This document shows positions 1-34,637 of a stretch of 38,095 nucleotides of DNA, piece after piece. A program made the translations under genes and the position numbers. Source of the stretch: a virus. Its lineage: Duplodnaviria > Heunggongvirae > Uroviricota > Caudoviricetes. The stretch lies in the IMG/VR virus record IMGVR_UViG_2526164613_000026, one strand, 5' to 3'. A model generated the notes under the pieces. That model searched no databases, was not told where the DNA came from, and saw only the letters and a program-made list of their open reading frames with translations. How positions within the stretch are numbered: the first letter of the stretch is position 1; the number at the start of each line of letters is the position of its first letter.

Positions 1-618
1 TGCATGATCCATAATTGTGTGTGATTGCCCTGAAAGTAGGGTACGTCCGACATCAATCCCGCGCCCATCATCCCAGATACGAATGAAATCACCGCGTGCG
101 TCAGGTAATGCCAGCGCCGGAAACACTTTCGCCAGCACAGGGTAATCAGTGGCAGAGAATTTCGCGCCGTTGAACTTCAAAAACACCATACCGGACCAGC
201 TATCGATTACGGTATCTGGCATTGCAGCGGACGGCCAGAAGAACGGAACGCCAATAGCTGGAGCTCCTTCTCCCAAACCAAGGTTTTCGAGAGCCGTTTT
301 CACCGTGCCATCCGATTTGATATCACCAAACGGATTCTTGCGGCTCAGGTATTCAACAGCAAACCCCGATCCCAGCAATTCAACAAAACCGGGCAGATCA
401 CCATTATCAAGCACATCCCGTTGCGTTTTATCACTTACAAACTGGGCCAGAGCTGCAGCAATAAAGCTGGCCTGCCGAATAACCTTATTGACTTGCGCAC
501 TGGAGGCTTTCCCTGCTGTAAATCCGGATAAAAGCGCGGGCAACGCTTCCCATTCCTCCTGCGATATAACATTGGCATTTCGATCCGTTGCAAACGCTTT
601 AAAGTCATTTTTCGTCAT
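1..618 (-). CDS. Tail fibre protein, N-terminal part (gene continues beyond window start)
   Basis: Minus-strand frame open from ATG at 618 to position 1 with no stop (hand-translated). ATGA overlap with upstream gene stop. Residues about 150-206 match the phage tail-collar motif ([42 protein letters not shown]). Confidence 0.7.
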
Positions 619-9776: not shown

Positions 9777-10922
9777 TTAGCGAACAACGTTAATCTGTAC
9801 GTCAGCGTAATGAACCGCGCCTGCAAGTTTTATTGCAGCCTGAATCACCGGAGCCTTACGGGCTTCACGTTCTGATTGTGCCTGTTCATCCAGCGGCTGG
9901 GCGTATACGTAATAACCTTTGGGCAGCGTGTCACCTGATGACAACTGACCAAGGTCGCCCCCGTTCCATACGCCCGGAGCAATCAGTCCATTCTGAACGG
10001 CCTGATCCAGTGATTTTTCAACATTTGATAACAGTCGGGTAATACCGGCTTCAGTCTGGGGAACTTTCGTGGTGCTGGTATAAAGCAGGTTATAAAGGTT
10101 GGTCTGCACATAATTCTGTAACCAGTCCAGGCCGTGGCGTTCATCAAAGAAATCGCCGTTAGCCATCACTCCCTGCTGGAGGATAGCCGTATCATTCTGG
10201 TAGTACACGAACACATTGCAGTTTTTTGCATCAAGTGCCGATGCCTGGCTGACTGTCAGTGTTTCATACCCGACACCCGGCTCCTGCTTAAACTTGAGCG
10301 TAATCGCGGTATTACTGCCATTGAAATTAACCGTGAATGCCCGGCCAAATGCAGATAACGCAGCGTATTTATTACCCGATGAATACTGAATAAAACTGCG
10401 TGAATATCCGGCGGTTTTCAGTTTTGATGCCAAATCATCGCTGGATGCAGTCTGCAGGCATTTCTCATCGCTTGTCGTAATCGCCAGAATACGGCTTACA
10501 GAAGAGGATTCGATCGCCGCAGCCACTTTCAGCCAGTCTGCATCCGGAATATCTTCATCGTCTGCAATCCCCAGCCCATACCATGAAGTATAATCAAGCA
10601 TGGCATTCACAGCCTGCTCCAGCGTCTCATGCGTGGCCTGTTCGCTGTCTCCCTTCGTTTTCACCCAACGACCAACAAAAACCTCCTGAGGTTTCGGTGA
10701 TTGTGAGAAAAACACCTGCGCAGCCTTATATTCTGGTGATTCCACGCCAAAATCTTTTCCAATATCTTCCGCGGCAGAATAACGGCGAATGCGCTCACTT
10801 ACCGGAATGATTGTGGACGGGCCGAGAATGAGTAATGCACCAAAATTTCGCCCTGATGCTGCACGCGGCGACATGATCACATCAACATTAACAACGTTTG
10901 ATACAGGCAAGCCCTGTGCCAT
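9777..10922 (-). CDS. Tail sheath protein (short sheath family of contractile tails)
   Basis: 381 aa, ATG at 10922. Position before tube/chaperone/tape measure; family recalled from memory as DUF3383-type sheath. Confidence 0.7.
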
Positions 10923-10925
10923 AGC

Positions 10926-11489
10926 TTAATCTCCGAAAAAGATGACTGGTGCTTCCACCAGCGATTTAATACCGTACTCGCGCACAACCTTCCGGCGCAG
11001 ACGCACCGTCATATCGTAGCGGCGGACCCATTGCTGATTAATAAGTTCAGGGAAGGGAGTCAGACCTGTGTAATCGCCAAGAGACAGCCCCAGCGCATTC
11101 AGTGCTGCGTTGTTCTGCGGTACAGATATACCGTCACGAAACCGGGACGCATACACCATCCCCGCCGGACCATAAAACGAAGCCATACACTCAATCGTTT
11201 CATGCCGCCAGAGCTGAGAGCCATCATCGGTCTGTCTGGTGAATGCCGGACTGTCATCACCTGACCATCCGATAACCCCAAACGCACACCAGTTCGTTTC
11301 AGCCGGTAGCAGTGGCGGTTGCTCTTTCTGCCAGCGCGGACGAACCATCCCGGCAGACAGACCGGAAACGTTACGCATCCACTGGCTTAACAGCCTGTCG
11401 AGCGCTTCGTCATAATCCGGATCGCCACTGGTTGGTATCAGCCATCCGCGCTCTGTGCTGGTGTTATTGCTCAACCGGAATTCCCCCAT
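10926..11489 (-). CDS. Virion protein (neck / tail completion region), unknown function
   Basis: ORF track gives 202 aa from ATG 11534, which overlaps the upstream gene by 71 nt. ATG at 11489 gives 187 aa. Start uncertain. Confidence 0.5.
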   Translation of the reverse strand: MGEFRLSNNTSTERGWLIPTSGDPDYDEALDRLLSQWMRNVSGLSAGMVRPRWQKEQPPLLPAETNWCAFGVIGWSGDDSPAFTRQTDDGSQLWRHETIECMASFYGPAGMVYASRFRDGISVPQNNAALNALGLSLGDYTGLTPFPELINQQWVRRYDMTVRLRRKVVREYGIKSLVEAPVIFFGD

Positions 11490-11853
11490 CAAACGGCAGC
11501 AACTCACAATGCGCCTGAACGAATCCGGCACCATACGCTGTATACGGGTCGACGAAAGTCACACGATAATCACGGCCCTGATACGTCACGATATCGGCAT
11601 CACGGCCAGTCTGTCCCTGCGTCAGTCGCTCAGTCGTCACAATCAGAATTGCACCACTGATTACCTGCCCGGCCTGCATACGACGGTTTTCCAGAGAGCG
11701 ATCAACAGTTACGACTCCGGCAAACTGCTTTTTAACTTCGCTGTCGCTGCCGATCCCGTCCTCATCCACCGTTTGCACACGGCGTGTTACCCACAAATTG
11801 AAGTCGCAAAAATCGGGGTCAAAAAGCACATCTGTTACATCAAGAGTCGGCAT
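11464..11853 (-). CDS. Virion protein (head-tail joining region), 129 aa
   Basis: ATG at 11853. Coupled gene series between capsid and sheath genes. Confidence 0.5.
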   Translation of the reverse strand: MPTLDVTDVLFDPDFCDFNLWVTRRVQTVDEDGIGSDSEVKKQFAGVVTVDRSLENRRMQAGQVISGAILIVTTERLTQGQTGRDADIVTYQGRDYRVTFVDPYTAYGAGFVQAHCELLPFDGGIPVEQ

Positions 11854-12394
11854 TTTTATCCCTCACAACATGGGTAATCGCTCTGCGATATTGCCCGGTG
11901 TCAATTAATGGTTTCGCCAGTTCGGTTCCCGGGGATTCGCCAGCAGCACGCCGGGCAAGTTCCAGTGTTGCCCCCTTGCGCCCCCGACGAGCCCGGGCTT
12001 CAACAGTACTGTCAGCAAGCGGCGTAAAGCCGGTAATGGTCATGTAACGCCTGACGCCATTAGCGGCCAGTGTTCCGGCACGGTTGAGTGCGCTTTCTGC
12101 TCCCGCAGCATTACCATCAAGTGCAGCCTGCGCCGCGGCTTTGAGCTGCGGCACCGTCTGCTCTTCTGCCGATTTAACGCCGGGGACCAGGTGAGGTCGT
12201 GGCGGGATGTTCTGCTCTGGTGAGCCGTATTCGTTGAGGTAACCGATGCCCGCATTACCAAACGGAACATCATCCCGCTCGCTGTCTTCCGAAGGGATGC
12301 CGACCAGAACATCTTTTTTGGTTAACGACCTGAGCGCATCCAGAATGGCCTTAGCGTTATCCACCCTCGTTGTTACACCGCTTTTGAAACTCAT
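11840..12394 (-). CDS. Virion protein (head-tail connector region), 184 aa
   Basis: ATG at 12394 with ATGA overlap to upstream gene. Confidence 0.5.
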
Positions 12395-12798
12395 AGCTGG
12401 CGACCACCTGCACCGAACATCGTGATCAACTGATAAAATTCAGCGCCATATCGGGTGTTATTCCAGAAACCTGCATCAGGATTCAGCGTCGCGCTGGTGT
12501 CATAACTGACGCTTACCTTATCCACGGACTTTGAGGACTGAACACCATTGGTTGAACCGCCCGGCCCGCCAGCCAGCATCGCCCGGATGTCTGCCGCCCA
12601 GAGCGTCATGTAGTGTGCAACGAACAATCCGGCAAAGTACGGAAACAACTTTTTGCTGGTGACGTTTTCGCTCAGCAGTTCATCGGCCAGATTCAGACGA
12701 AACTGGATTTGCGCTTCGGGATATTTGGCAGGGTCAGCAAACTGCGGGAAGTCGCGGCGAAAATCACTTACCGCTGGCAGACTTTGATTCTTTGGCAT
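12391..12798 (-). CDS. Head-tail adaptor-like protein, 135 aa
   Basis: ATG at 12798. Size and position downstream of major capsid gene. Confidence 0.5.
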
Positions 12799-12985
12799 TT
12801 TTTACCTCGTTACGCGCGTCTGTGGCTTTGCCAACGGATACTTCCGCGTGCGCACGAGTGAACCAGTGCGTGGCAACGTCTTCCTCCACAGCATGACGGC
12901 CTTTAACAAACTCGCTCCGCGAACCGTCGGGAAGCGTGAGCACAAACGGGGTATGTACGTGTATTACTGCATTATTTTTTGCCAT
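12764..12985 (-). CDS. Small phage protein, 73 aa
   Basis: ATG at 12985 with AAGGA upstream. Overlaps downstream gene by 35 nt. Confidence 0.4.
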
Positions 12986-13026
12986 CGGGTCATCCTTAAT
13001 GGCCCCGCCAGGGGGCCATATGGCTG

Positions 13027-13968
13027 TTAAATGCCATCAACGTACGAAATGGTTTCTTTGTACACTGGCTCGACTGCACCCAGCTTGCCGTAGTAAGTGA
13101 CGATCTGATACAGACCGCGATACTGCACCGGCACGCTCTGAAGCGGAACCAGCGGGTAGCGGACGTATTTTTTATCGTTGGTGTACGCAACCATGCGATC
13201 CTTATTCCCCACACCACGGCCTTTCAGCCATTTAACCGCGCGGATATTCAGCGGAACACCGTTCTGGTGATAGCTGATGGTGTTGGTCTGAAGGTACGTC
13301 AACAGGGACTGGTTACCCGCAGATGAAACGATGATGCTGGACAACAGAGCAAACTGCTCAGGCGGGATCAGCAAATCACGCGGAACCACAGAGTAACCGG
13401 AAGCGGCCCACGCATCAGACAGCACCTGGTTAATGCTTGCGCGGATTTCGTCCGATGTTGAGGTTGCCCACGTTTTGGCAGCGTTGTTGACAGGCACGCC
13501 GTCCAGGGTAACAAGGCCTTTCAGGTTTAATGCGGAATCGCCAACATATACCTGTTCATCGTTATCCATCTGCCATTTCAGTTGCATACCGTCATACTTC
13601 TGCGTATCAATCGGGCGGCCGACCTGCTGAGCAGCCTGCAATTCTATGACCGTCCAGCCAAGTTCCATCCCCCACAGGTTCAGCGGGTTACCGGATTTGC
13701 CGATATCCACGTTCACGCCAGCAATAGCGGTTGAGTCTTTGCCTACCCAGTTTTTTCCATTCGGATTTGCACCAGTACCCGCAGCGGCGAAGCTGGTATT
13801 CGTCCAGCTGGAAATGTCATCTGCGATGGAGACGTCTTCACGCAGTTGAATATCGCGGCTCCAGGTGTACCCCACCAGTGGCAGGTTCAGCGTCTGGTCG
13901 AGTCGTTCCAGCTCCCCGATGAGAAAGGCACCAGAGCTGTCAACGGTTGCCTGATCAAAAGTAATCAT
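13027..13968 (-). CDS. Major capsid protein
   Basis: 313 aa, ATG at 13968. Follows scaffold-like and decoration-like genes. Family recalled as the DUF2184-type coat that co-occurs with DUF2213 and Mu F-like proteins. Confidence 0.75.
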   Translation of the reverse strand: MITFDQATVDSSGAFLIGELERLDQTLNLPLVGYTWSRDIQLREDVSIADDISSWTNTSFAAAGTGANPNGKNWVGKDSTAIAGVNVDIGKSGNPLNLWGMELGWTVIELQAAQQVGRPIDTQKYDGMQLKWQMDNDEQVYVGDSALNLKGLVTLDGVPVNNAAKTWATSTSDEIRASINQVLSDAWAASGYSVVPRDLLIPPEQFALLSSIIVSSAGNQSLLTYLQTNTISYHQNGVPLNIRAVKWLKGRGVGNKDRMVAYTNDKKYVRYPLVPLQSVPVQYRGLYQIVTYYGKLGAVEPVYKETISYVDGI

Positions 13969-13979
13969 TCGTCTGTTCC

Positions 13980-14486
13980 TTAAATCTTCCAGGAAATTTC
14001 TGCATTGCCGTCAGCATCACCGGCACCTGTGAATTCAGCGTTGGTCAGCACCACGTTTTTGCCACTGACTGACGTGGCCATGAATCCACCCAGCGGCACT
14101 TTGATGGATTCATCAGTGGAGACGACAACGTATACCGGGTCGCCTTTTTTGATGGTGCTGGCATCAAAATCAGAACCGAGATTAACGGTCACGTAGCCAC
14201 GCTTCATGGCGTCGCCCGGGAAGTTCTTGCCACTCCCCACCTGGCGAACCATGTCCGGCTGCGACGTGGTCGGATAAGGGCGCACGTAGATCCCCTTCAC
14301 CTTGTCTGCGGTATCACCATCTGCCAGCGGCACGAAAAAACCGTCATCATCGTATTTACCAGCCAGCCCATAGGCAGCGAAGGCGTTATCGGATTTAAGG
14401 GCCACCGGTTCGACGGTTAAGTCCTGCGGGCGAGAGACAGCCCCGGCAATGCCAACAGGCATCCGATACAGAAATACATTATTCAT
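13980..14486 (-). CDS. Head structural protein (decoration/cement-like), 168 aa
   Basis: ATG at 14486. Between scaffold-like gene and capsid gene. Confidence 0.5.
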   Translation of the reverse strand: MNNVFLYRMPVGIAGAVSRPQDLTVEPVALKSDNAFAAYGLAGKYDDDGFFVPLADGDTADKVKGIYVRPYPTTSQPDMVRQVGSGKNFPGDAMKRGYVTVNLGSDFDASTIKKGDPVYVVVSTDESIKVPLGGFMATSVSGKNVVLTNAEFTGAGDADGNAEISWKI

Positions 14487-14489
14487 TTT

Positions 14490-15710
14490 TTACCCTTTAC
14501 GGTTTGCCCAGAATTCAGCGTTTTGTTTGTTCAGGGAAGCGATACTGGTCATGCCCATGTTTGGGCGCTGTGCATCGCCGGTGGTGGCGCGGGTGTTTCG
14601 CCCTTTGGCAATCTCTAACACGGCATTAAACGCCATGTCGACCGATTGTTTCGGTAATTTGCGGATATCCGCATCACCGACTATCTGGCGAACCAGCGTT
14701 TTGTCAGCAGAAGCCAGAACCTCGCGTTTGAACGCGGTCGGTTTCATCTTACGGCTCAGATCGATACCCGGAACGATAACTTCGGCACGCCAGGCTGAGT
14801 CACCAGTAATCGTGGTTTCCTCTTCATCGTCCTCGCCGTCACCGGTCGGATTATCGTCAGGCTTATTGTCGTTATCGCCCGTCGCATTTCCTTCCAGCTT
14901 AGCCAGCAGGGCTTTCAGTAATGTTTTGAGGTCATCATCACTGTCGCCGGTTGGACCTCCGCCCATCTCTGGTGCTTTGTCCGGTAGCGGTTGCTGCGGG
15001 GACAGATTGATGTTGAGATTAACGCCCTGCGGCAAATCCCCCTCATCTCCTGTAACCGATGCGGGAGCCGACTCCACCAGTTCGTTCATGGTGTCAGCGT
15101 CACCCGTTTTGATGGCCGTGCGCATGCGGGTCCACCAGCTTTTCTTTTGATTTGCCATTGTGTCTCTGTCTCCAATTGCACAACGATTTCCGGCTCTGCC
15201 TTTAGGGACAAGAGCCACATGGTTTCCGGTAATATCGACCTGCCCGGCTTTACCTGGCTCGGTCTGCTCATACTCCGCGTCATAGCCGCACGACACTTCG
15301 CGCAGGCCATCTTCGATAAGCTGAATGGCGTTTTCGTCTTTGACGATAAGGTCAGCCAGCATCAAATCAGACTGCTCACCCGTCCCGCGCCGGACATTCT
15401 GGAGGTGCCCGACAGCAAGCTCTTTCCAGTTCTCGGGATTTACCAGCCGCACATTCCCGTTTTCATCTTCAGGATGCAGAATCGTGATGCTCATCCCTTC
15501 GAATGAGGCAAGCGTGGCCGGATGGAATACCTGCACAGGAGAACGCGTGACGACTATTTCACCGAACTTATCGGGTTTCAGTTTTGGCAGGTCATCAGCA
15601 CCATAGAGCTGCTTACCTGTTCGTCCTATCGGCACGTCTCTGCACAGCAACGAGCCGTCAGCCAGCTGATAGCGGGTTTCCCCCAGCCGGGTATTGAAAA
15701 AATATTTCAT
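14490..15710 (-). CDS. Prohead scaffold-like protein with acidic low-complexity linker
   Basis: 406 aa, ATG at 15710. Asp/Glu/Gly-rich central stretch (GDSDDDLK, NPTGDGEDDEEETT). Family recalled as DUF2213-like. Confidence 0.6.
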   Translation of the reverse strand: MKYFFNTRLGETRYQLADGSLLCRDVPIGRTGKQLYGADDLPKLKPDKFGEIVVTRSPVQVFHPATLASFEGMSITILHPEDENGNVRLVNPENWKELAVGHLQNVRRGTGEQSDLMLADLIVKDENAIQLIEDGLREVSCGYDAEYEQTEPGKAGQVDITGNHVALVPKGRAGNRCAIGDRDTMANQKKSWWTRMRTAIKTGDADTMNELVESAPASVTGDEGDLPQGVNLNINLSPQQPLPDKAPEMGGGPTGDSDDDLKTLLKALLAKLEGNATGDNDNKPDDNPTGDGEDDEEETTITGDSAWRAEVIVPGIDLSRKMKPTAFKREVLASADKTLVRQIVGDADIRKLPKQSVDMAFNAVLEIAKGRNTRATTGDAQRPNMGMTSIASLNKQNAEFWANRKG

Positions 15711-15724
15711 GTGTTACCTGCGAT

Positions 15725-16498
15725 TCAGGCGGGATAAGATTGGGAGGTGGGAAAAACGATTTCTTTATAACAGCGACAATTCGGGAGCTCGCCAGCGTGA
15801 CCTGTCATGCCGTCAAGCGTTGGAGGTTTGCCCCATTCGACAAATTTACCTTCCATTTCCCGATGAGAATGCCTGACGTCACCATCTTCGGCTGTACGCC
15901 AGATATAACCATTCGAACCAATTGACAGCGCACGCGCCTGATCCAGCGCGCCGGTTGCACGTCCAAGTTCAGTACGGGCAATCAGGTCAGCTCTGGACTT
16001 TGCTATATCACCCGATGCGGCTATTTCTTTAGCAAAATATTCTGCTCTCCCACCGGTCACAACAGCTTCTGTCGCCCGATTCTGGATGTCGTACACCCTG
16101 TCAGCCGCCTCGAGGGGGAGCGATTTGATGTACTTGACCTGTTCGGCGATGATGGATTGCATCACCTGGCCCACAGGAGCGCTTTCCACAAGATTGCGGA
16201 GCTCGCGACTGATGTTCTTGCTGTGTTGCCGCCAAACTTTCTCGTTCTGCCGGGTTAGGTCCGCAGTAAAGTTTTCCGCGACCTTTGTCGCCCAGGGGGT
16301 GATGATTTCACTGTAGCGTTCCAGCGCCTCAATAATTTCCGTGATACTGTCATTTGAACCATCGTAGCGACCATTTACGATGTCTCCGACCGCCCGCGCT
16401 ATCCTGCGTAGGCTGGTTCGATAGCGGATTTCCGCCTGACGGTTCCTGCGGTTCGTCATCAGATTCGCCGATGCCGGGCGGCGCTTCATCTTCGGCAT
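15725..16498 (-). CDS. Phage Mu F-like minor head (head morphogenesis) protein
   Basis: 257 aa, ATG at 16498. Overlaps portal 3' end by 149 nt. C-terminal HSHREMEG, Cys-rich tail, and position right after portal. Confidence 0.7.
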   Translation of the reverse strand: MPKMKRRPASANLMTNRRNRQAEIRYRTSLRRIARAVGDIVNGRYDGSNDSITEIIEALERYSEIITPWATKVAENFTADLTRQNEKVWRQHSKNISRELRNLVESAPVGQVMQSIIAEQVKYIKSLPLEAADRVYDIQNRATEAVVTGGRAEYFAKEIAASGDIAKSRADLIARTELGRATGALDQARALSIGSNGYIWRTAEDGDVRHSHREMEGKFVEWGKPPTLDGMTGHAGELPNCRCYKEIVFPTSQSYPA

Positions 16499-21503: not shown

Positions 21504-21527
21504 ACAAAAAAGTTCGCCATAGCGAAC
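21504..21527 (-). terminator. Intrinsic terminator about 80 nt upstream of holin (tR'-like position)
   Basis: Minus-strand RNA GUUCGC-UAUG-GCGAAC (6-bp stem) followed by UUUUUUGUAUU. Confidence 0.6.
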
Positions 21528-29680: not shown

Positions 29681-30061
29681 TCACTCAGGAATCTTAATCT
29701 TTCTCAATTCTTTATTTAGTTCACAGATCTTTTTCTTAGACGGGAAAGTATCATACATCCAAAAACCAACAGTCTCTAAAACTATTATCATAACCATATA
29801 CACAAGATAATTTAAAAGGCCTTCATTTTGCCCTATGGAAATAATGCAGATAATAGAAAAAAGGGTAAACAGCACAAAACACAGAAAGGAAAACAGACGA
29901 CTAATAATAAATAAAAAACCTGAAAAATCAACATTAATAAAAAACACTCCGTTATCTTTCTCTATATAATTCTGAAGCTTAATCAACTGATTTATATACT
30001 GTCTTTTTTCTAATCTATTGCAAATGTAAATAACATCTCTTCGGTTATAAGAGGATTGCAA
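29681..30061 (-). CDS. Accessory membrane protein ORF, 126 aa from TTG (or C-terminal part of a longer gene interrupted by TAG)
   Basis: AT-rich, antisense to replication module. Two long hydrophobic segments. Starts at TTG without a Shine-Dalgarno. In frame with the ORF upstream across a single TAG. Confidence 0.45.
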   Translation of the reverse strand: MQSSYNRRDVIYICNRLEKRQYINQLIKLQNYIEKDNGVFFINVDFSGFLFIISRLFSFLCFVLFTLFSIICIISIGQNEGLLNYLVYMVMIIVLETVGFWMYDTFPSKKKICELNKELRKIKIPE

Positions 30062-30121
30062 TTTCAGCGCATCACGAATAATTTTATCATTTATTCTTTT
30101 TTCTATGGCTTTCTTATCCTC

Positions 30122-30310
30122 CTAATCCAGATAACGTTCATACTTAATTAAATATAAAATTAACTTCTTGACATATTTAGGCTCTTTATACTTATAATTA
30201 AAAATGATCTTTCTTATCCAGACTCCCATAACAATCAAACATGAAAAAATATATCCAGCTATTTTCTCCAGATGCTCTGTATGGTCAATCAAGTATTGGA
30301 TCATATGCAT
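30122..30310 (-). CDS. Small accessory membrane protein, 62 aa (or N-terminal part of interrupted gene)
   Basis: ATG at 30310, one hydrophobic segment (IAGYIFSCLIVMGVWI). Stop TAG at 30122..30124, followed in frame by 20 sense codons and then the 126-aa ORF. Confidence 0.4.
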   Translation of the reverse strand: MHMIQYLIDHTEHLEKIAGYIFSCLIVMGVWIRKIIFNYKYKEPKYVKKLILYLIKYERYLD

Positions 30311-30356: not shown

Positions 30357-32420
30357 ATGTCCAATATACTATGGGGCGACCTGGAAACCTATTGCGAAAT
30401 CCCTATTACGAACGGTACCCATGCGTATGCCGAAGGCGTTGAAGTGATGCTTTTCGCATGGGCTATCAACGACGGGCCAGTAAACGTGTGGGATATCACT
30501 GCCGGTGGTGGTATTCCACACGGCTTATACGAAGCAATCGCAGCCCCTGAAACCCTGCTTTATTTCCATAACTCTCACTTCGACCGCACCGTTCTGCGTT
30601 ATGCAATGCCGCGACTGGCACCGCCAGTCGAACGTTGGCGCGACACGATGGTGCAGGCGCTGGCGCACGGTCTCCCGGGGTCTCTGGGGGAACTCTGCGA
30701 AATACTAGGCGTCCCGCAAGACAAAGCGAAGAACAAAGAAGGTAAAGCGCTGATCCAGCTGTTCTGTAAGCCACGCCCGAAAAACAGCAAACTGCGCCGT
30801 GCCACCAGCAAAACCCACCCGGAAGAATGGCGGCGCTTTGTTGCTTACGCCGGACTGGATATCGAGGCAATGCGCGAAGTCTATAAACGTCTGCCGAAGT
30901 GGAATTATCAGGGGACAGAGCTGGCGCTCTGGCATCGTGATCAGCAGATCAACGACCGGGGCGTCTGCATGGACATGCAACTCGCGCGCGCTGCGATCGA
31001 AGCGGTAGACCAGGAGCAAAAGCGCCTAGCAAAGCGTACACAGGAAATGACTGATGGCGAAGTGCAGGCAGCCACACAACGAGACGCGTTGATTAAGCAC
31101 ATTGTTGAATCCTACGGTGTGGAGCTACCAGACATGCAACGCAGTACTCTGGAACGTCGTATTGCCGACCCCCATTTACCATCTGCCGTGAAAGAACTGC
31201 TGGCTATCCGCCTGCAAGCCAGTACTACCAGCACCAGTAAATACAAGGCACTGATGAAAGGCGTAAGCCACGACGGGCGCTTACGCGGTACGCTACAGTT
31301 CTGCGGGGCGTCACGTACCGGTCGTTGGGCCGGACGGCTATTCCAGCCCCAGAACCTTCCCCGCCCTTCACTAAAACAGGAACAAATAGACGAAGGCATC
31401 GAAGCACTGAAAGCCGGATGTGCAGACCTGCTGTTTGACAATATCATGGAACTAACCAGTTCAGCGTTACGTGGCTGCATTATCGCGCCAACAGGCAAAA
31501 AACTGGTGGTAAGTGACTTGTCGAATATTGAAGGCCGTATGCTGGCATGGCTGGCGGGAGAAGAATGGAAACTGAATGCATTCAGAGAGTACGACGCCGG
31601 AACGGGTCCAGACTTATATAAACTGGCGTATGCAAAAGCTTTCGATATTGCACCAGATGATGTTGATAAACACATGCGTCAGATCGGTAAAGTCATGGAA
31701 CTCGGTCTGGGTTATGGAGGTGGTGTATCGGCTTTCATCACTTTTGCTCTGGTTTACGGTCTAGATCTCGACGAGCTGGCGAACGCCGCACTGCCAAACA
31801 TTCCCCGCGATGTTATCCGCGAGGCGAAAAGCTGGTACAACGAATCGGTTAAACATAAGTCGACCTTTGGCCTGTCCGAGCGTGTATTCATCGCATGTGA
31901 CTCGCTCAAGCGCCTGTGGCGCAGGGCGCACCCGGCGACCTGCGATTTCTGGTACGAGCTGGAGCGCACTGTCCGCACAGCAATCGCCACACCGCAAAAA
32001 ACATTGTATTGCGGCTATCTTAAAATCCGACGTGATGGCGCGTGGCTGCGCATACAGCTGCCATCTGGACGCGCTGTATGCTACCCGTCTCCGATTATCG
32101 AAAAAGGGAATATCACCTATATGGGTGTTAACTCTTATTCGCGTAAATGGCAACGACTCAAAACCTACGGCGGAAAGCTGGTAGAGAACGTCACCCAGGC
32201 GGCCGCCCGCGACGTTCTGGCCGGAAACATGCCGCTTATCGAAGATGCCGGTTACAGCATTGTGCTGACGGTACACGACGAGGTGATCACCGAAGCACCT
32301 AACACAGAAGATTTCAACGATAAAGCGCTTTCCGCGCTTCTCTCCACTAACCCCGAATGGGCGCCCGATATCCCACTGAACGCTGGCGGTTTTGAAGCGT
32401 ACCACTACCGTAAGGACTGA
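30357..32420 (+). CDS. DNA polymerase I family (family A) with N-terminal 3'-5' exonuclease-like domain
   Basis: 687 aa, ATG with AAGG upstream. Polymerase motifs seen directly: [15 protein letters not shown] (motif A-like), [16 protein letters not shown] (motif B-like), LTVHDEVI (motif C). Confidence 0.9.
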
Positions 32421-32505
32421 TCCCAGCTCACAAATCAGATACATGACATCATTGAAGATATATGTATCATATAGCTATCCTTAACAGATTGTTTTTGGTG
32501 CTTTA

Positions 32506-33015
32506 ATGGAAAATACAGATGTCTGGCTATCAAGGATAGGTACTTTTGTTACCATAATTGGTGCTATGTGTTCACTATGGGGGTGGAAAAAGTCGCGGGA
32601 TGCCGCCACAGAAGCTCAAAAGGCTTTAGCTACGGTCAATTATCAACGTAGTATAAGGGACGCAGGCAACCTTCATGGAAAGTTATCAACCGCCATAAAA
32701 TCTCTAAGAGCAATTGGTCCTGGTTCGAATGAGGAAAATGTTCGAGGCATAAGTTTAGAACCAATAATTTCGGAAATAGAGGATTTCATCGATTTATTTG
32801 CAGCCCAAGCAATAAAACCTAACAATAAAGTAAAATTGAGCATAGACTCAGAAAATTTTTGTGCTGAAATAAGGGAAAATATTTCTGAACTTTCAGATGC
32901 AAAAACTCCTGCGGAAAAGTTAAGAACAGGTAGAGTTTTGCATGCAAAAATATTGGCTATTCAACCTCACATAGATCTACTCGTTGATGATTTAACGTTT
33001 AACACTCAAGGATAA
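32506..33015 (+). CDS. Accessory membrane-anchored protein, 169 aa, unknown function
   Basis: AT-rich. N-terminal hydrophobic anchor (IGTFVTIIGAMCSLWGW). Upstream inverted repeat GATACAT-N17-ATGTATC at 32438..32468. Confidence 0.5.
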   Translation: MENTDVWLSRIGTFVTIIGAMCSLWGWKKSRDAATEAQKALATVNYQRSIRDAGNLHGKLSTAIKSLRAIGPGSNEENVRGISLEPIISEIEDFIDLFAAQAIKPNNKVKLSIDSENFCAEIRENISELSDAKTPAEKLRTGRVLHAKILAIQPHIDLLVDDLTFNTQG

Positions 33016-33020
33016 AAAAC

Positions 33021-33571
33021 ATGCAACTTTCAGATGGCGAAAAACTAATTCTAATGATGCTGTGTGACCTGTACGATAAAAACGAGATTGAAGGCGAAAT
33101 CGATCACACATTTGTCCGTGATGCTATATTCGAAAACCAAACATGGGCACTCCCTTGGAAATTTAGTGGTATTCCATTTAAAAACACCGAAACTCCACGT
33201 GTTGTAAAAAAAGTTCTAGACATCCTAGATATGTGGAGAGTTATTGAATATAGCTACAGTGAACTTACAGAAGAAGAAAAAAGAAGTTAAAAGAAAATGT
33301 TGAGTTATTTGGAAAAAAACCAATATTCAAAGGATTCGATGGAAATAACGAAACTGAGTATCTTGCAGCCGCTGATTTCGTCATCAATAAACTGGATAGA
33401 TTTGAAGAATTCAAATTAAGAGATCTTAATTCTCACATGCCTTCGCTGGCATCATACGAACGCATGATGCATGTATTCAATCCATTATTTCATGAGAATT
33501 TTGGCGAGCCATTGACACTAGAACAACTAACCTTAGTTCTCCGTGAAAAAATTCATCCCAGCCGTCGCTAA
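33021..33571 (+). pseudogene. YfbU-family (UPF0304) protein gene interrupted by a 1-nt frameshift in an A6 run
   Basis: Frame 0 (89 aa, ATG 33021, AGGA upstream) stops at TAA 33288..33290. The -1 frame is open from 33263 to TAA 33569..33571 with no start before codon 47 of the continuation. Both halves align with E. coli YfbU as recalled. Adding one A to the run at 33277..33282 would give a single ~183-aa ORF. Confidence 0.5.
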
Positions 33572-33580
33572 AGATTCCCA

Positions 33581-33600
33581 GCCCTCAAACTAGAGGGCTA
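33581..33600 (+). other. Perfect hairpin at 3' boundary of the accessory cassette
   Basis: AGCCCTC-AAACTA-GAGGGCT, 7-bp stem, immediately before the VRR-NUC ribosome-binding site. Confidence 0.35.
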
Positions 33601-33613
33601 AAGGAAACCTCAT

Positions 33614-33883
33614 ATGATATATGAACGTGAAAACCTAATCGAGAAGCATCTCGTCGCCGAAGTGAAAAAGGCTGGTGGGGTCGCCTTTAAGTTCATATCA
33701 CCTAGTCGCCGCTCGGTACCAGATCGCATTGTTCTGCTACCCGGCGGCCGTCTCGTTTTCGTTGAATGTAAATCTCCCGGCAAGCCACCACGGCCTGACC
33801 AGTTGCGCGAGCATGAACGTCTGCGAAAGCTGGGCTTTACCGTGGTAGTACTGGATAGCAAAAATTTAGAGGGGATATTGTGA
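33614..33883 (+). CDS. VRR-NUC domain nuclease
   Basis: 89 aa, ATG with AAGGAAA upstream. PD-(D/E)XK-type D...E.K core (PDRIVLLPGGRLVFVECKSPG). Confidence 0.7.
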   Translation: MIYERENLIEKHLVAEVKKAGGVAFKFISPSRRSVPDRIVLLPGGRLVFVECKSPGKPPRPDQLREHERLRKLGFTVVVLDSKNLEGIL

Positions 33884-33888
33884 GACAA

Positions 33889-34599
33889 TCATTCTGAGCG
33901 ACTTTTCTTGAGCTTAGAAGCTTTTAAAAAACATACTTTTAGTTGTTGTGTTTCTTTTATGCTTACAGGAATTAATTTCCCCTCAATTCCTTCGACACTC
34001 ATAAATTCAGAGCTATTTTTTTTACAGTTCCCCAAGACAAATTTTCCGTTATAGCTTTCGATAATATAAGCATTATATTTTTTAGAATAAAAAAGGGGCT
34101 CATCTGATAAGTATGCCCATGCCCACCCAAGGACTGAAGGAAGCATTGCTATGGATATAAAAAGCATAACCCCATGAGTTTTGTTTTTTATTCTAAATTC
34201 ATTCCTAATAAAAACAGATACTGCCCTGACACTGATAGGGCTAATAAATCCCAATAGTATTGCTTGGGTAGCCACATCCCTTATGGATTTTTCATAAAGG
34301 TATGAGCTACCGCCATATAAATACATTGTCCAGTATGAAAGCAAAGAGGCCAAAATGAAGAAAAATAAATACACCCACCATGGAATATTCTTCTCTTCAG
34401 TATCAATATGCAGCAAAGCGACTAAGGTGCACAAAAGTCCTAATGCAATAACAGAAAATTTAACTATTTCCTCAATCCCAATAGAAATAAAACTTACAGG
34501 GAATCCATAAAATGAGCTGTACCCTTTGTAAAAAGAAAAAGCCATAAAATAAAGGGCGGCCAAGAGAACCGTTGTAATTGATAAATCTTTTACATTCAT
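33889..34599 (-). CDS. Accessory polytopic membrane protein, 236 aa, unknown function
   Basis: ORF track starts at GTG 34614; ATG at 34599 (MNVKDL). About five hydrophobic helices then a soluble Lys-rich C-terminal domain. AT-rich, antisense, convergent with VRR-NUC (5-nt gap) and divergent from the SNF2 gene (38-nt gap). Confidence 0.55.
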   Translation of the reverse strand: MNVKDLSITTVLLAALYFMAFSFYKGYSSFYGFPVSFISIGIEEIVKFSVIALGLLCTLVALLHIDTEEKNIPWWVYLFFFILASLLSYWTMYLYGGSSYLYEKSIRDVATQAILLGFISPISVRAVSVFIRNEFRIKNKTHGVMLFISIAMLPSVLGWAWAYLSDEPLFYSKKYNAYIIESYNGKFVLGNCKKNSSEFMSVEGIEGKLIPVSIKETQQLKVCFLKASKLKKSRSE

Positions 34600-34637
34600 G
34601 ATGTTCAAGAGCACCTTTCTAATCAGGGATTTTCTTC

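Follow-up and report, generated by a model that had tools for sequence, protein, structure and literature searches.

A two-gene cassette encoding a predicted membrane-anchored protein and a YfbU-family protein in the replication module of an Escherichia coli O55:H7 prophage

The stretch of viral DNA analysed here, IMG/VR record IMGVR_UViG_2526164613_000026 (Duplodnaviria; Heunggongvirae; Uroviricota; Caudoviricetes), is 38,095 nucleotides long and is referred to as the window. Its source is a prophage of Escherichia coli O55:H7 that is integrated next to yfhL. In the replication module, between the polymerase gene and the VRR-NUC gene, lies an AT-rich cassette of two genes – one for a 169-amino acid protein with a predicted membrane anchor, here called the partner, and one for a protein of the YfbU family, the reading frame of which is interrupted in this record. 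The features of the locus are as follows, with positions given in the window:

32421..33613 (+), the variable-slot insert (cassette), from the polymerase stop codon at 32420 to the VRR-NUC start codon at 33614; about 37% GC
32438..32468 (strand not applicable), an inverted repeat, GATACAT-N17-ATGTATC, from an inverted-repeat scan; it overlaps the promoter-like site
32443..32470 (+), a promoter-like site, ATGACA-16 nt-TATCAT, from a promoter scan; 10 of 12 matches
32506..33015 (+), the partner gene, 169 amino acids, with a predicted N-terminal membrane helix and cytoplasmic helical bundle; unnamed family
33021..33571 (+), the YfbU-clade gene, 183 amino acids if intact; in this record 33021..33290 (89 amino acids) plus a remainder in the -1 frame that ends at 33571
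33277..33282 (+), an A6 run, the cause of the apparent frameshift; one A fewer than in every related genome checked (A7)
33580..33599 (+), a hairpin with a perfect 7-bp stem and a 6-nt loop, from the inverted-repeat scan; just upstream of the VRR-NUC ribosome-binding site

Every sequence feature listed in an earlier note on this DNA was found where that note placed it, and its description of an AT-rich two-gene insert between the polymerase and VRR-NUC genes is borne out by base composition and by comparison with related prophages. The GC content is 0.37 at 32438–33600, versus 0.54 in the polymerase gene and 0.51 in the VRR-NUC gene. In prophages that lack the cassette, homology to the window stops at 32416 and restarts at 33620, so the cassette fills exactly the gap between the two genes.

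5,426 complete E. coli genomes were surveyed for this slot with a query consisting of the end of the polymerase gene, the cassette, and the start of the VRR-NUC gene. The query was matched in 153 of the genomes, and only 5 of these hold the cassette. The same slot in relatives holds an ANR regulator with either DUF4406 or an S-adenosylmethionine (SAM) methyltransferase, and a CAP12/Pycsar-type TIR protein occupies the position after the polymerase in the induced phage vB_EcoM-606R2 (3684–4445 of the sequence examined). The slot just before the polymerase may carry a SIR2 family protein (E. coli 21KM1392, 1–1467 of the sequence examined). The slots around the polymerase are typical cargo hot spots, and the TIR and SIR2 cargo in relatives makes the replication module of this prophage family a hot spot for cargo of the defence type. 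As a whole, the region is a two-gene operon that is intact by design and moves horizontally; the prophage carries it as cargo in one of the variable slots of its replication module, and the two genes are probably translationally coupled.

The YfbU-like gene starts at 33021, 5 nt past the stop codon of the partner gene, and the AAGGA within the end of the partner gene is its putative Shine-Dalgarno sequence. In frame 0 there are 89 codons, followed by a TAA at 33288–33290; the rest of the gene is in the -1 frame and continues to 33571. As the earlier note proposed, adding one A to the A6 run (33277..33282) restores a single open reading frame (ORF), of 183 amino acids. Its assignment of the gene to the YfbU family also held in a profile search with the restored protein. 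The Pfam YfbU profile (PF03887, UPF0304) matches with E = 5.5e-21 and 75.8 bits (cut-off 25), and the alignment spans the full length – residues 1–171 of the protein on profile positions 1–161 of 166. The restored protein also matches phrog_6084 (2e-42), and it has the two-domain helical fold of YfbU.

Within the clade of YfbU-like proteins to which this one belongs, mean column identity is 65–70%, and the motifs GFDGNNE and NSH are invariant. The score against NF003936, the NCBIfam equivalog for canonical YfbU, is below the cut-off (57.9 bits vs. 90) and comes from residues 61–154 only. The protein aligns with the chromosomal YfbU of E. coli at E = 4e-5 with phmmer (C-terminal half) and with an hhalign probability of 97% (C-terminal domain). 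By these comparisons the YfbU-like protein belongs to a separate 183-amino acid clade of the YfbU fold, distant from chromosomal YfbU. It is cytoplasmic.

The frameshift in the YfbU-like gene was examined by alignment of the window with the complete genome of E. coli O55:H7 strain DEC5B (NZ_CP038389.1). Over 37,832 aligned bases there are one substitution and three one-base gaps, and at each of the gaps (21505, 21542 and 33277–82) the window is short of one A in an A-run. The run is longer at all three sites in both DEC5B and CB9615, as it is in MLI108K3 (21505 and 21542) and in strain 48 (33277–82). The runs at 21505 and 21542 are intergenic, upstream of the holin gene, and differ from the relatives in the same way as the run in the YfbU-like gene. 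The sole substitution adjoins an invertible segment. Positions 1..286 of the window are inverted relative to DEC5B, beside tail-fibre assembly genes and pinE, and look like a Pin-type invertible tail-fibre segment in the opposite orientation.

All five of the complete E. coli genomes with the cassette have an intact 552-nt gene annotated as "YfbU family protein" (183 amino acids). In a collection of 15 billion proteins, the truncated product of 89 amino acids is found in 2 contigs and intact 183-amino acid forms in more than 370. Since three A-run contractions with almost no substitutions are the signature of under-calling, the A6 is most likely a true A7 that was under-called in assembly, not a biological lesion or switch, and the frameshift is no ground for listing the gene as a pseudogene or a phase switch.

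Three origins for the A-run had been left open in the earlier note – a sequencing error, a recent inactivation, and a phase-variable switch. The first is favoured by the three shortfalls relative to DEC5B and by the longer run in all relatives checked. It has one observation against it: the A6 allele is also in the Logan assembly of read set SRR094151, and so in at least one raw read set. This assembly was built directly from the reads, which speaks for a real and recent slip from A7 to A6 in the isolate, making the YfbU-like gene a fresh pseudogene. Slippage is naturally frequent at A7 runs, of which the intact gene has three, and another cargo gene of the prophage, at 29681–30310, is truly inactivated by a nonsense codon common to DEC5B. 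A recent slip is nonetheless unlikely. The run is A7 in every relative and is one of three shortfalls, and three A-run contractions with one substitution, by the invertible segment, in 37.8 kb are typical of homopolymer under-calling. The SRR094151 contig is the same as the window over 6.27 kb except for one further one-base indel, 30 nt downstream, which suggests an indel-prone read set. SRR094151 probably also holds the reads behind the assembly of the window, and hence would not be independent evidence. Phase variation, in which slipped-strand mispairing at the A-run toggles the YfbU-like gene, is very improbable. The run is a coding homopolymer whose change in length toggles the frame, and one other dataset has the gene frameshifted differently, close to another of its A7 runs, but the frame is intact in five complete genomes and in more than 370 contigs, whereas A6 is found in 2 contigs. 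The tract is short (7 bases) and encodes an ordinary Glu/Lys-rich stretch; it is invariably A7 in the complete genomes and in every enteric relative, whereas Morganella has an A8 that keeps the frame and most homologues lack the tract. Being invariant among the complete genomes checked and not conserved beyond them, the tract was rejected as a contingency locus. Programmed -1 ribosomal frameshifting or transcriptional slippage that joins the two frames at the A-run can be set aside almost entirely. The shift from frame 0 to -1 on A AAA AGA, before a rare AGA codon, has formally the right direction, but this sequence falls short of a true slippery heptamer, Rfam gave no RNA family, and all homologues are single ORFs, none of which needs a frameshift. 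Because the frameshift is absent from every relative, both mechanisms were ruled out.

The second cargo gene mentioned above, 29681..30310 (-), is also AT-rich (about 28% GC), belongs to phrog_10579, and encodes hydrophobic segments. Its nonsense codon is at 30122–30124. Position 30124 is an A in the window and in DEC5B and a T in CB9615, where the protein is intact (209 amino acids). This gene is regarded as a real pseudogene because the complete DEC5B genome has the same change.

The partner protein has a single hydrophobic segment, at residues 6–24 (Kyte-Doolittle mean 1.54), which upholds, as a prediction, the N-terminal membrane anchor described in the earlier note. The flank on the N-terminal side of the helix is acidic and that on the C-terminal side is basic, and the anchor is therefore predicted to have its N-terminus outside and its C-terminus inside. 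In the structure model, which is a confident one (predicted local distance difference test, pLDDT, 84.8), a long helix begins with the membrane segment and continues into a cytoplasmic helical bundle. Structure searches with this model found only generic four-helix bundles. Small residues are abundant in the membrane helix of most family members (SIIGSIASIGGAIWAF), a pattern compatible with helix-helix packing in the membrane.

No match to the partner was found in Pfam, PHROG, PADLOC or NCBIfam, other than a weak match to a TorS sensor (E = 0.061). An initial homologue search gave only seven close clusters. A profile search of 1.84 billion representatives at E <= 0.001 gave ca. 300 clusters at 50% identity, nearly all of them of proteins with 150–185 amino acids and none with a fusion to another domain. 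The family is found in Gamma- and Betaproteobacteria, Desulfobacterota, Campylobacterota (Arcobacter), Zetaproteobacteria, and some bins of Bacillota. YfbV (PF04217) was considered as an identity for the partner and ruled out – there is no Pfam match, the hhalign probability is 0.2%, and the partner has one N-terminal helix where YfbV has two internal ones.

The conservation of the pair was surveyed by scanning the alignment of YfbU-like proteins over one genome per species, which returned 80 loci. A homologue of the partner is directly upstream on the same strand at 31 of the 32 loci where the YfbU-like protein is at least 50% identical to that of the window, at 9 of the 15 loci with 45–49% identity, and at none of the 29 loci with less than 45% identity. 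The distance between the two genes at the surveyed loci is usually 10–14 nt. Four divergent representatives of the partner family were looked up, and all four adjoin a PF03887 gene. Three of the four have the reverse order, with the YfbU gene first, and one of the four has overlapping stop and start codons. The YfbU genes of these divergent pairs encode 162–175 amino acids, and the gaps in the reversed order are 0–3 nt. The two genes stay adjacent even where their order has changed, which argues strongly that their products are functional partners. Beside the pair, the neighbourhoods examined show no conserved third gene. The earlier note had made its proposal depend in part on whether the pair co-occurs elsewhere, and recurrence proved to be strong – at nearly all close loci (31 of 32), and in prophages, on a plasmid and in islands. 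One large mobile YfbU clade is thus tied to a membrane-anchored partner of its own, whichever gene comes first.

A different neighbour is found in the P2-like Yersinia phage vB_YenM_324 (2269–4552 of the sequence examined), which encodes a YfbU-like protein of 192 amino acids (50% identical, PF03887) after a protein of 551 amino acids with no clear domain. The 551-amino acid protein, in the place of the small membrane partner, may be another type of partner.

Together with the promoter-like block upstream, the pair recurs in three other contexts. In a Citrobacter-type prophage it occupies the same slot, in Morganella it lies between icd and a lambdoid integrase gene, and in a metagenomic integrative island it is beside an AAA_23+MC2+CTD6 system. 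The pair is also found on an IncFII conjugative plasmid of Raoultella and on 3 IMG/VR contigs. The pair moves among integrative islands, plasmids and prophages and takes a promoter-like region of its own with it. The neighbours elsewhere include genes of the defence type (type I restriction R subunits, GmrSD, PrrC, TIR_2 and DUF4062) and of mobile elements (transposases, integrases, a Mu transposase and a conjugation ATPase), and the neighbourhoods have, qualitatively, a flavour of defence and mobile elements.

The sequence that is kept upstream of the pair is a block of CATGAC, then TATGTATCAT, then CCCTTAAC...GTTTTTGGTG, present in the E. coli, Citrobacter-type, Morganella and metagenome copies. 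This conserved element is a promoter-like -35/-10 pair that travels with the cassette. The earlier note had pointed instead to the inverted repeat GATACAT-N17-ATGTATC. The repeat does exist at that position, but as a distinct feature it does not stand, and it is the promoter-like -35/-10 pair that is conserved. The repeat is one of 20 comparable inverted repeats within 1.26 kb, and its left arm is not conserved in the Morganella or JGI copies of the cassette; for these two reasons it is not above chance expectation and is probably fortuitous, and a role as an operator was ruled out. The perfect hairpin that the same note described at the 3' end is present at 33580–33599. It is kept only in the Citrobacter-type copy, and other contexts have different hairpins. 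It was ruled out as a terminator, there being no T-run and no call by the terminator scan. An Rfam search of the whole window gave no match.

For two decades YfbU has had the status of a structural-genomics orphan, and to our knowledge its functional links are limited to a role in death after DNA damage and to the defence protein Kamadhenu. The former comes from E. coli, where yfbU counts as a 'death gene', being needed for cells to die by the MazF-dependent route once their DNA is damaged (PMC2646832). Kamadhenu is a YfbU-domain protein of 180 amino acids, pUCCL624_130, encoded on a Lactococcus plasmid and validated in 2024 as a single-gene abortive infection system (PMC11381338). Mutants that escape it, reported in 2025, map to one residue of a Sak-like single-strand annealing protein of the phage (PMC12184496). 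The statement in the earlier note that no such defence module had been described therefore needs to be divided: defence by a YfbU protein is known (Kamadhenu, PMC11381338), whereas the pairing of a membrane protein with YfbU was found described nowhere, the full-text literature on YfbU, UPF0304, PF03887 and Kamadhenu having been searched for it.

Compared by description, Kamadhenu and the YfbU-like protein of the window are similar in length (180 and 183 amino acids) and share the YfbU domain. As with the pair in the window, Kamadhenu is on mobile DNA beside other defence genes. However, it is reported as a single-gene system, whereas the clade in the window almost always has a dedicated membrane-anchored partner, and its host is Lactococcus, whereas the hosts of the pair are Gram-negative. 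No Lactococcus plasmid is among the listed tblastn plasmid matches to the YfbU-like protein.

The chromosomal YfbU of E. coli (UPF0304, PDB 1WPB/4LR3) has the same fold and is of the same Pfam family as the protein in the window, and it too has a gene for a small membrane protein nearby – yfbV is 82 nt upstream on the same strand (K-12, 2412100–2413132). YfbV (PF04217) has two transmembrane segments. Chromosomal YfbU differs in length (164 vs. 183 amino acids), and the clade in the window has invariant motifs of its own, GFDGNNE and NSH; the gene for chromosomal YfbU is a core gene, whereas that of the window is mobile and AT-rich and has a partner unrelated to YfbV. Because the partner and YfbV are not homologous, yfbV-yfbU is a parallel to the pair and not a member of it. 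A membrane protein beside YfbU is nevertheless a recurring arrangement, although the two membrane proteins are unrelated.

Adjacent genes for a membrane component and a soluble component, in hot spots of prophages and islands, are known from two-gene defence systems such as Kiwa KwaAB and CBASS/Pycsar with transmembrane effectors. The pair in the window is like these systems in layout but has no sequence or profile similarity to them (the PADLOC search was empty), and neither a nucleotide cyclase nor any other signalling enzyme can be recognised in it.

The cassette is genuine and widely conserved, and it represents a two-gene form of a type of defence protein that was recognised only recently. 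The explanation preferred for it as a whole – a mobile two-gene operon, with the A-run an artefact, that encodes an anti-phage module of the abortive-infection type related to Kamadhenu – is held with slightly better than even confidence, and a defence or exclusion role, judged on its own, would be about an even call. In the proposed mechanism, the partner would be tethered to the inner membrane by its one N-terminal helix, with the bundle domain predicted to face the cytoplasm, and the trigger for the YfbU-like protein would be phage replication or recombination activity. Kamadhenu escapes map to a phage single-strand annealing protein, and in E. coli death upon DNA damage requires YfbU. The membrane partner may either restrain the YfbU-like protein at the membrane or itself deliver lethal membrane damage. 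A wider and more doubtful proposal, made tentatively, is that the pair is a widespread anti-phage system, found described nowhere, in which a membrane component is coupled to a YfbU-type protein that senses recombination or replication activity of the phage. If true, this would give a first handle on the role of the YfbU fold, and possibly also on that of the chromosomal yfbV-yfbU pair. With two components that can be tested, and with the intact copies of DEC5B and CB9615 as a defined source from E. coli, the pair offers a route to the biochemistry of the fold.

Several observations weigh against the defence explanation. Neither protein matches a PADLOC-DB 2.0 profile at E <= 0.1, and the working of Kamadhenu as a single gene leaves the role of the partner unexplained. 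The N-terminal helix of the partner in the window is marginally hydrophobic (1.54, vs. about 2.0 in most family members), and the neighbourhoods of the pair are mixed, with housekeeping genes such as those for alpha-2-macroglobulin and a penicillin-binding protein (PBP) included. Two other functions were weighed. As a toxin-antitoxin or addiction module, the pair would stabilise mobile elements and not defend against phage. It is a small, tightly coupled two-gene operon, found on plasmids, prophages and islands and kept in both gene orders, as would fit two interacting proteins, and YfbU has been linked to programmed cell death downstream of MazF. Against this, both proteins exceed the typical size of type II components, and searches of Pfam, PHROG, PADLOC and NCBIfam gave no resemblance to known toxin or antitoxin families. 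Many addiction modules also act in defence, so that this explanation, rather unlikely in itself, overlaps with the one preferred. It is also unlikely that the pair serves the DNA handling of its own element, for instance as a tether or organiser of replicating DNA at the membrane, and is not directed against competitors. The parallel would be yfbV-yfbU: the two genes are 82 nt apart on the same strand in K-12, and YfbV, which is needed to insulate the Ter macrodomain, is a proposed tether of DNA to the membrane (PMC3330122). The position of the cassette inside a replication module would also fit. However, the partner is not homologous to YfbV (hhalign 0.2%), and the cassette is dispensable, being held by 5 of the 153 complete genomes that matched the query. 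It has a foreign base composition and its own promoter-like region, and the pair also occurs outside replication modules. The reading as an abortive-infection type module is the one retained.

Genes of the YfbU family are also found on plasmids outside this clade. 147–149 of the ca. 190 plasmid records with a match are from Enterococcus, and others are from Xanthomonas, Curtobacterium and mycobacteria; all of these are distant from the clade in the window.

In the Citrobacter-type relative, the pair is closely followed by a cluster of MksB/E/F and DUF7281 and a BrxR-like regulator, which adjoin an SNF2 gene that is truncated (about 10400–16450 of the sequence examined). In the window, an AT-rich gene between the VRR-NUC and SNF2 genes, 33889..34614 (-), encodes a protein of 241 amino acids with several hydrophobic segments and no match in Pfam, PHROG, PADLOC or NCBIfam. 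In relatives, this slot between VRR-NUC and SNF2 holds genes for a cytosine methyltransferase or of the Arc family.

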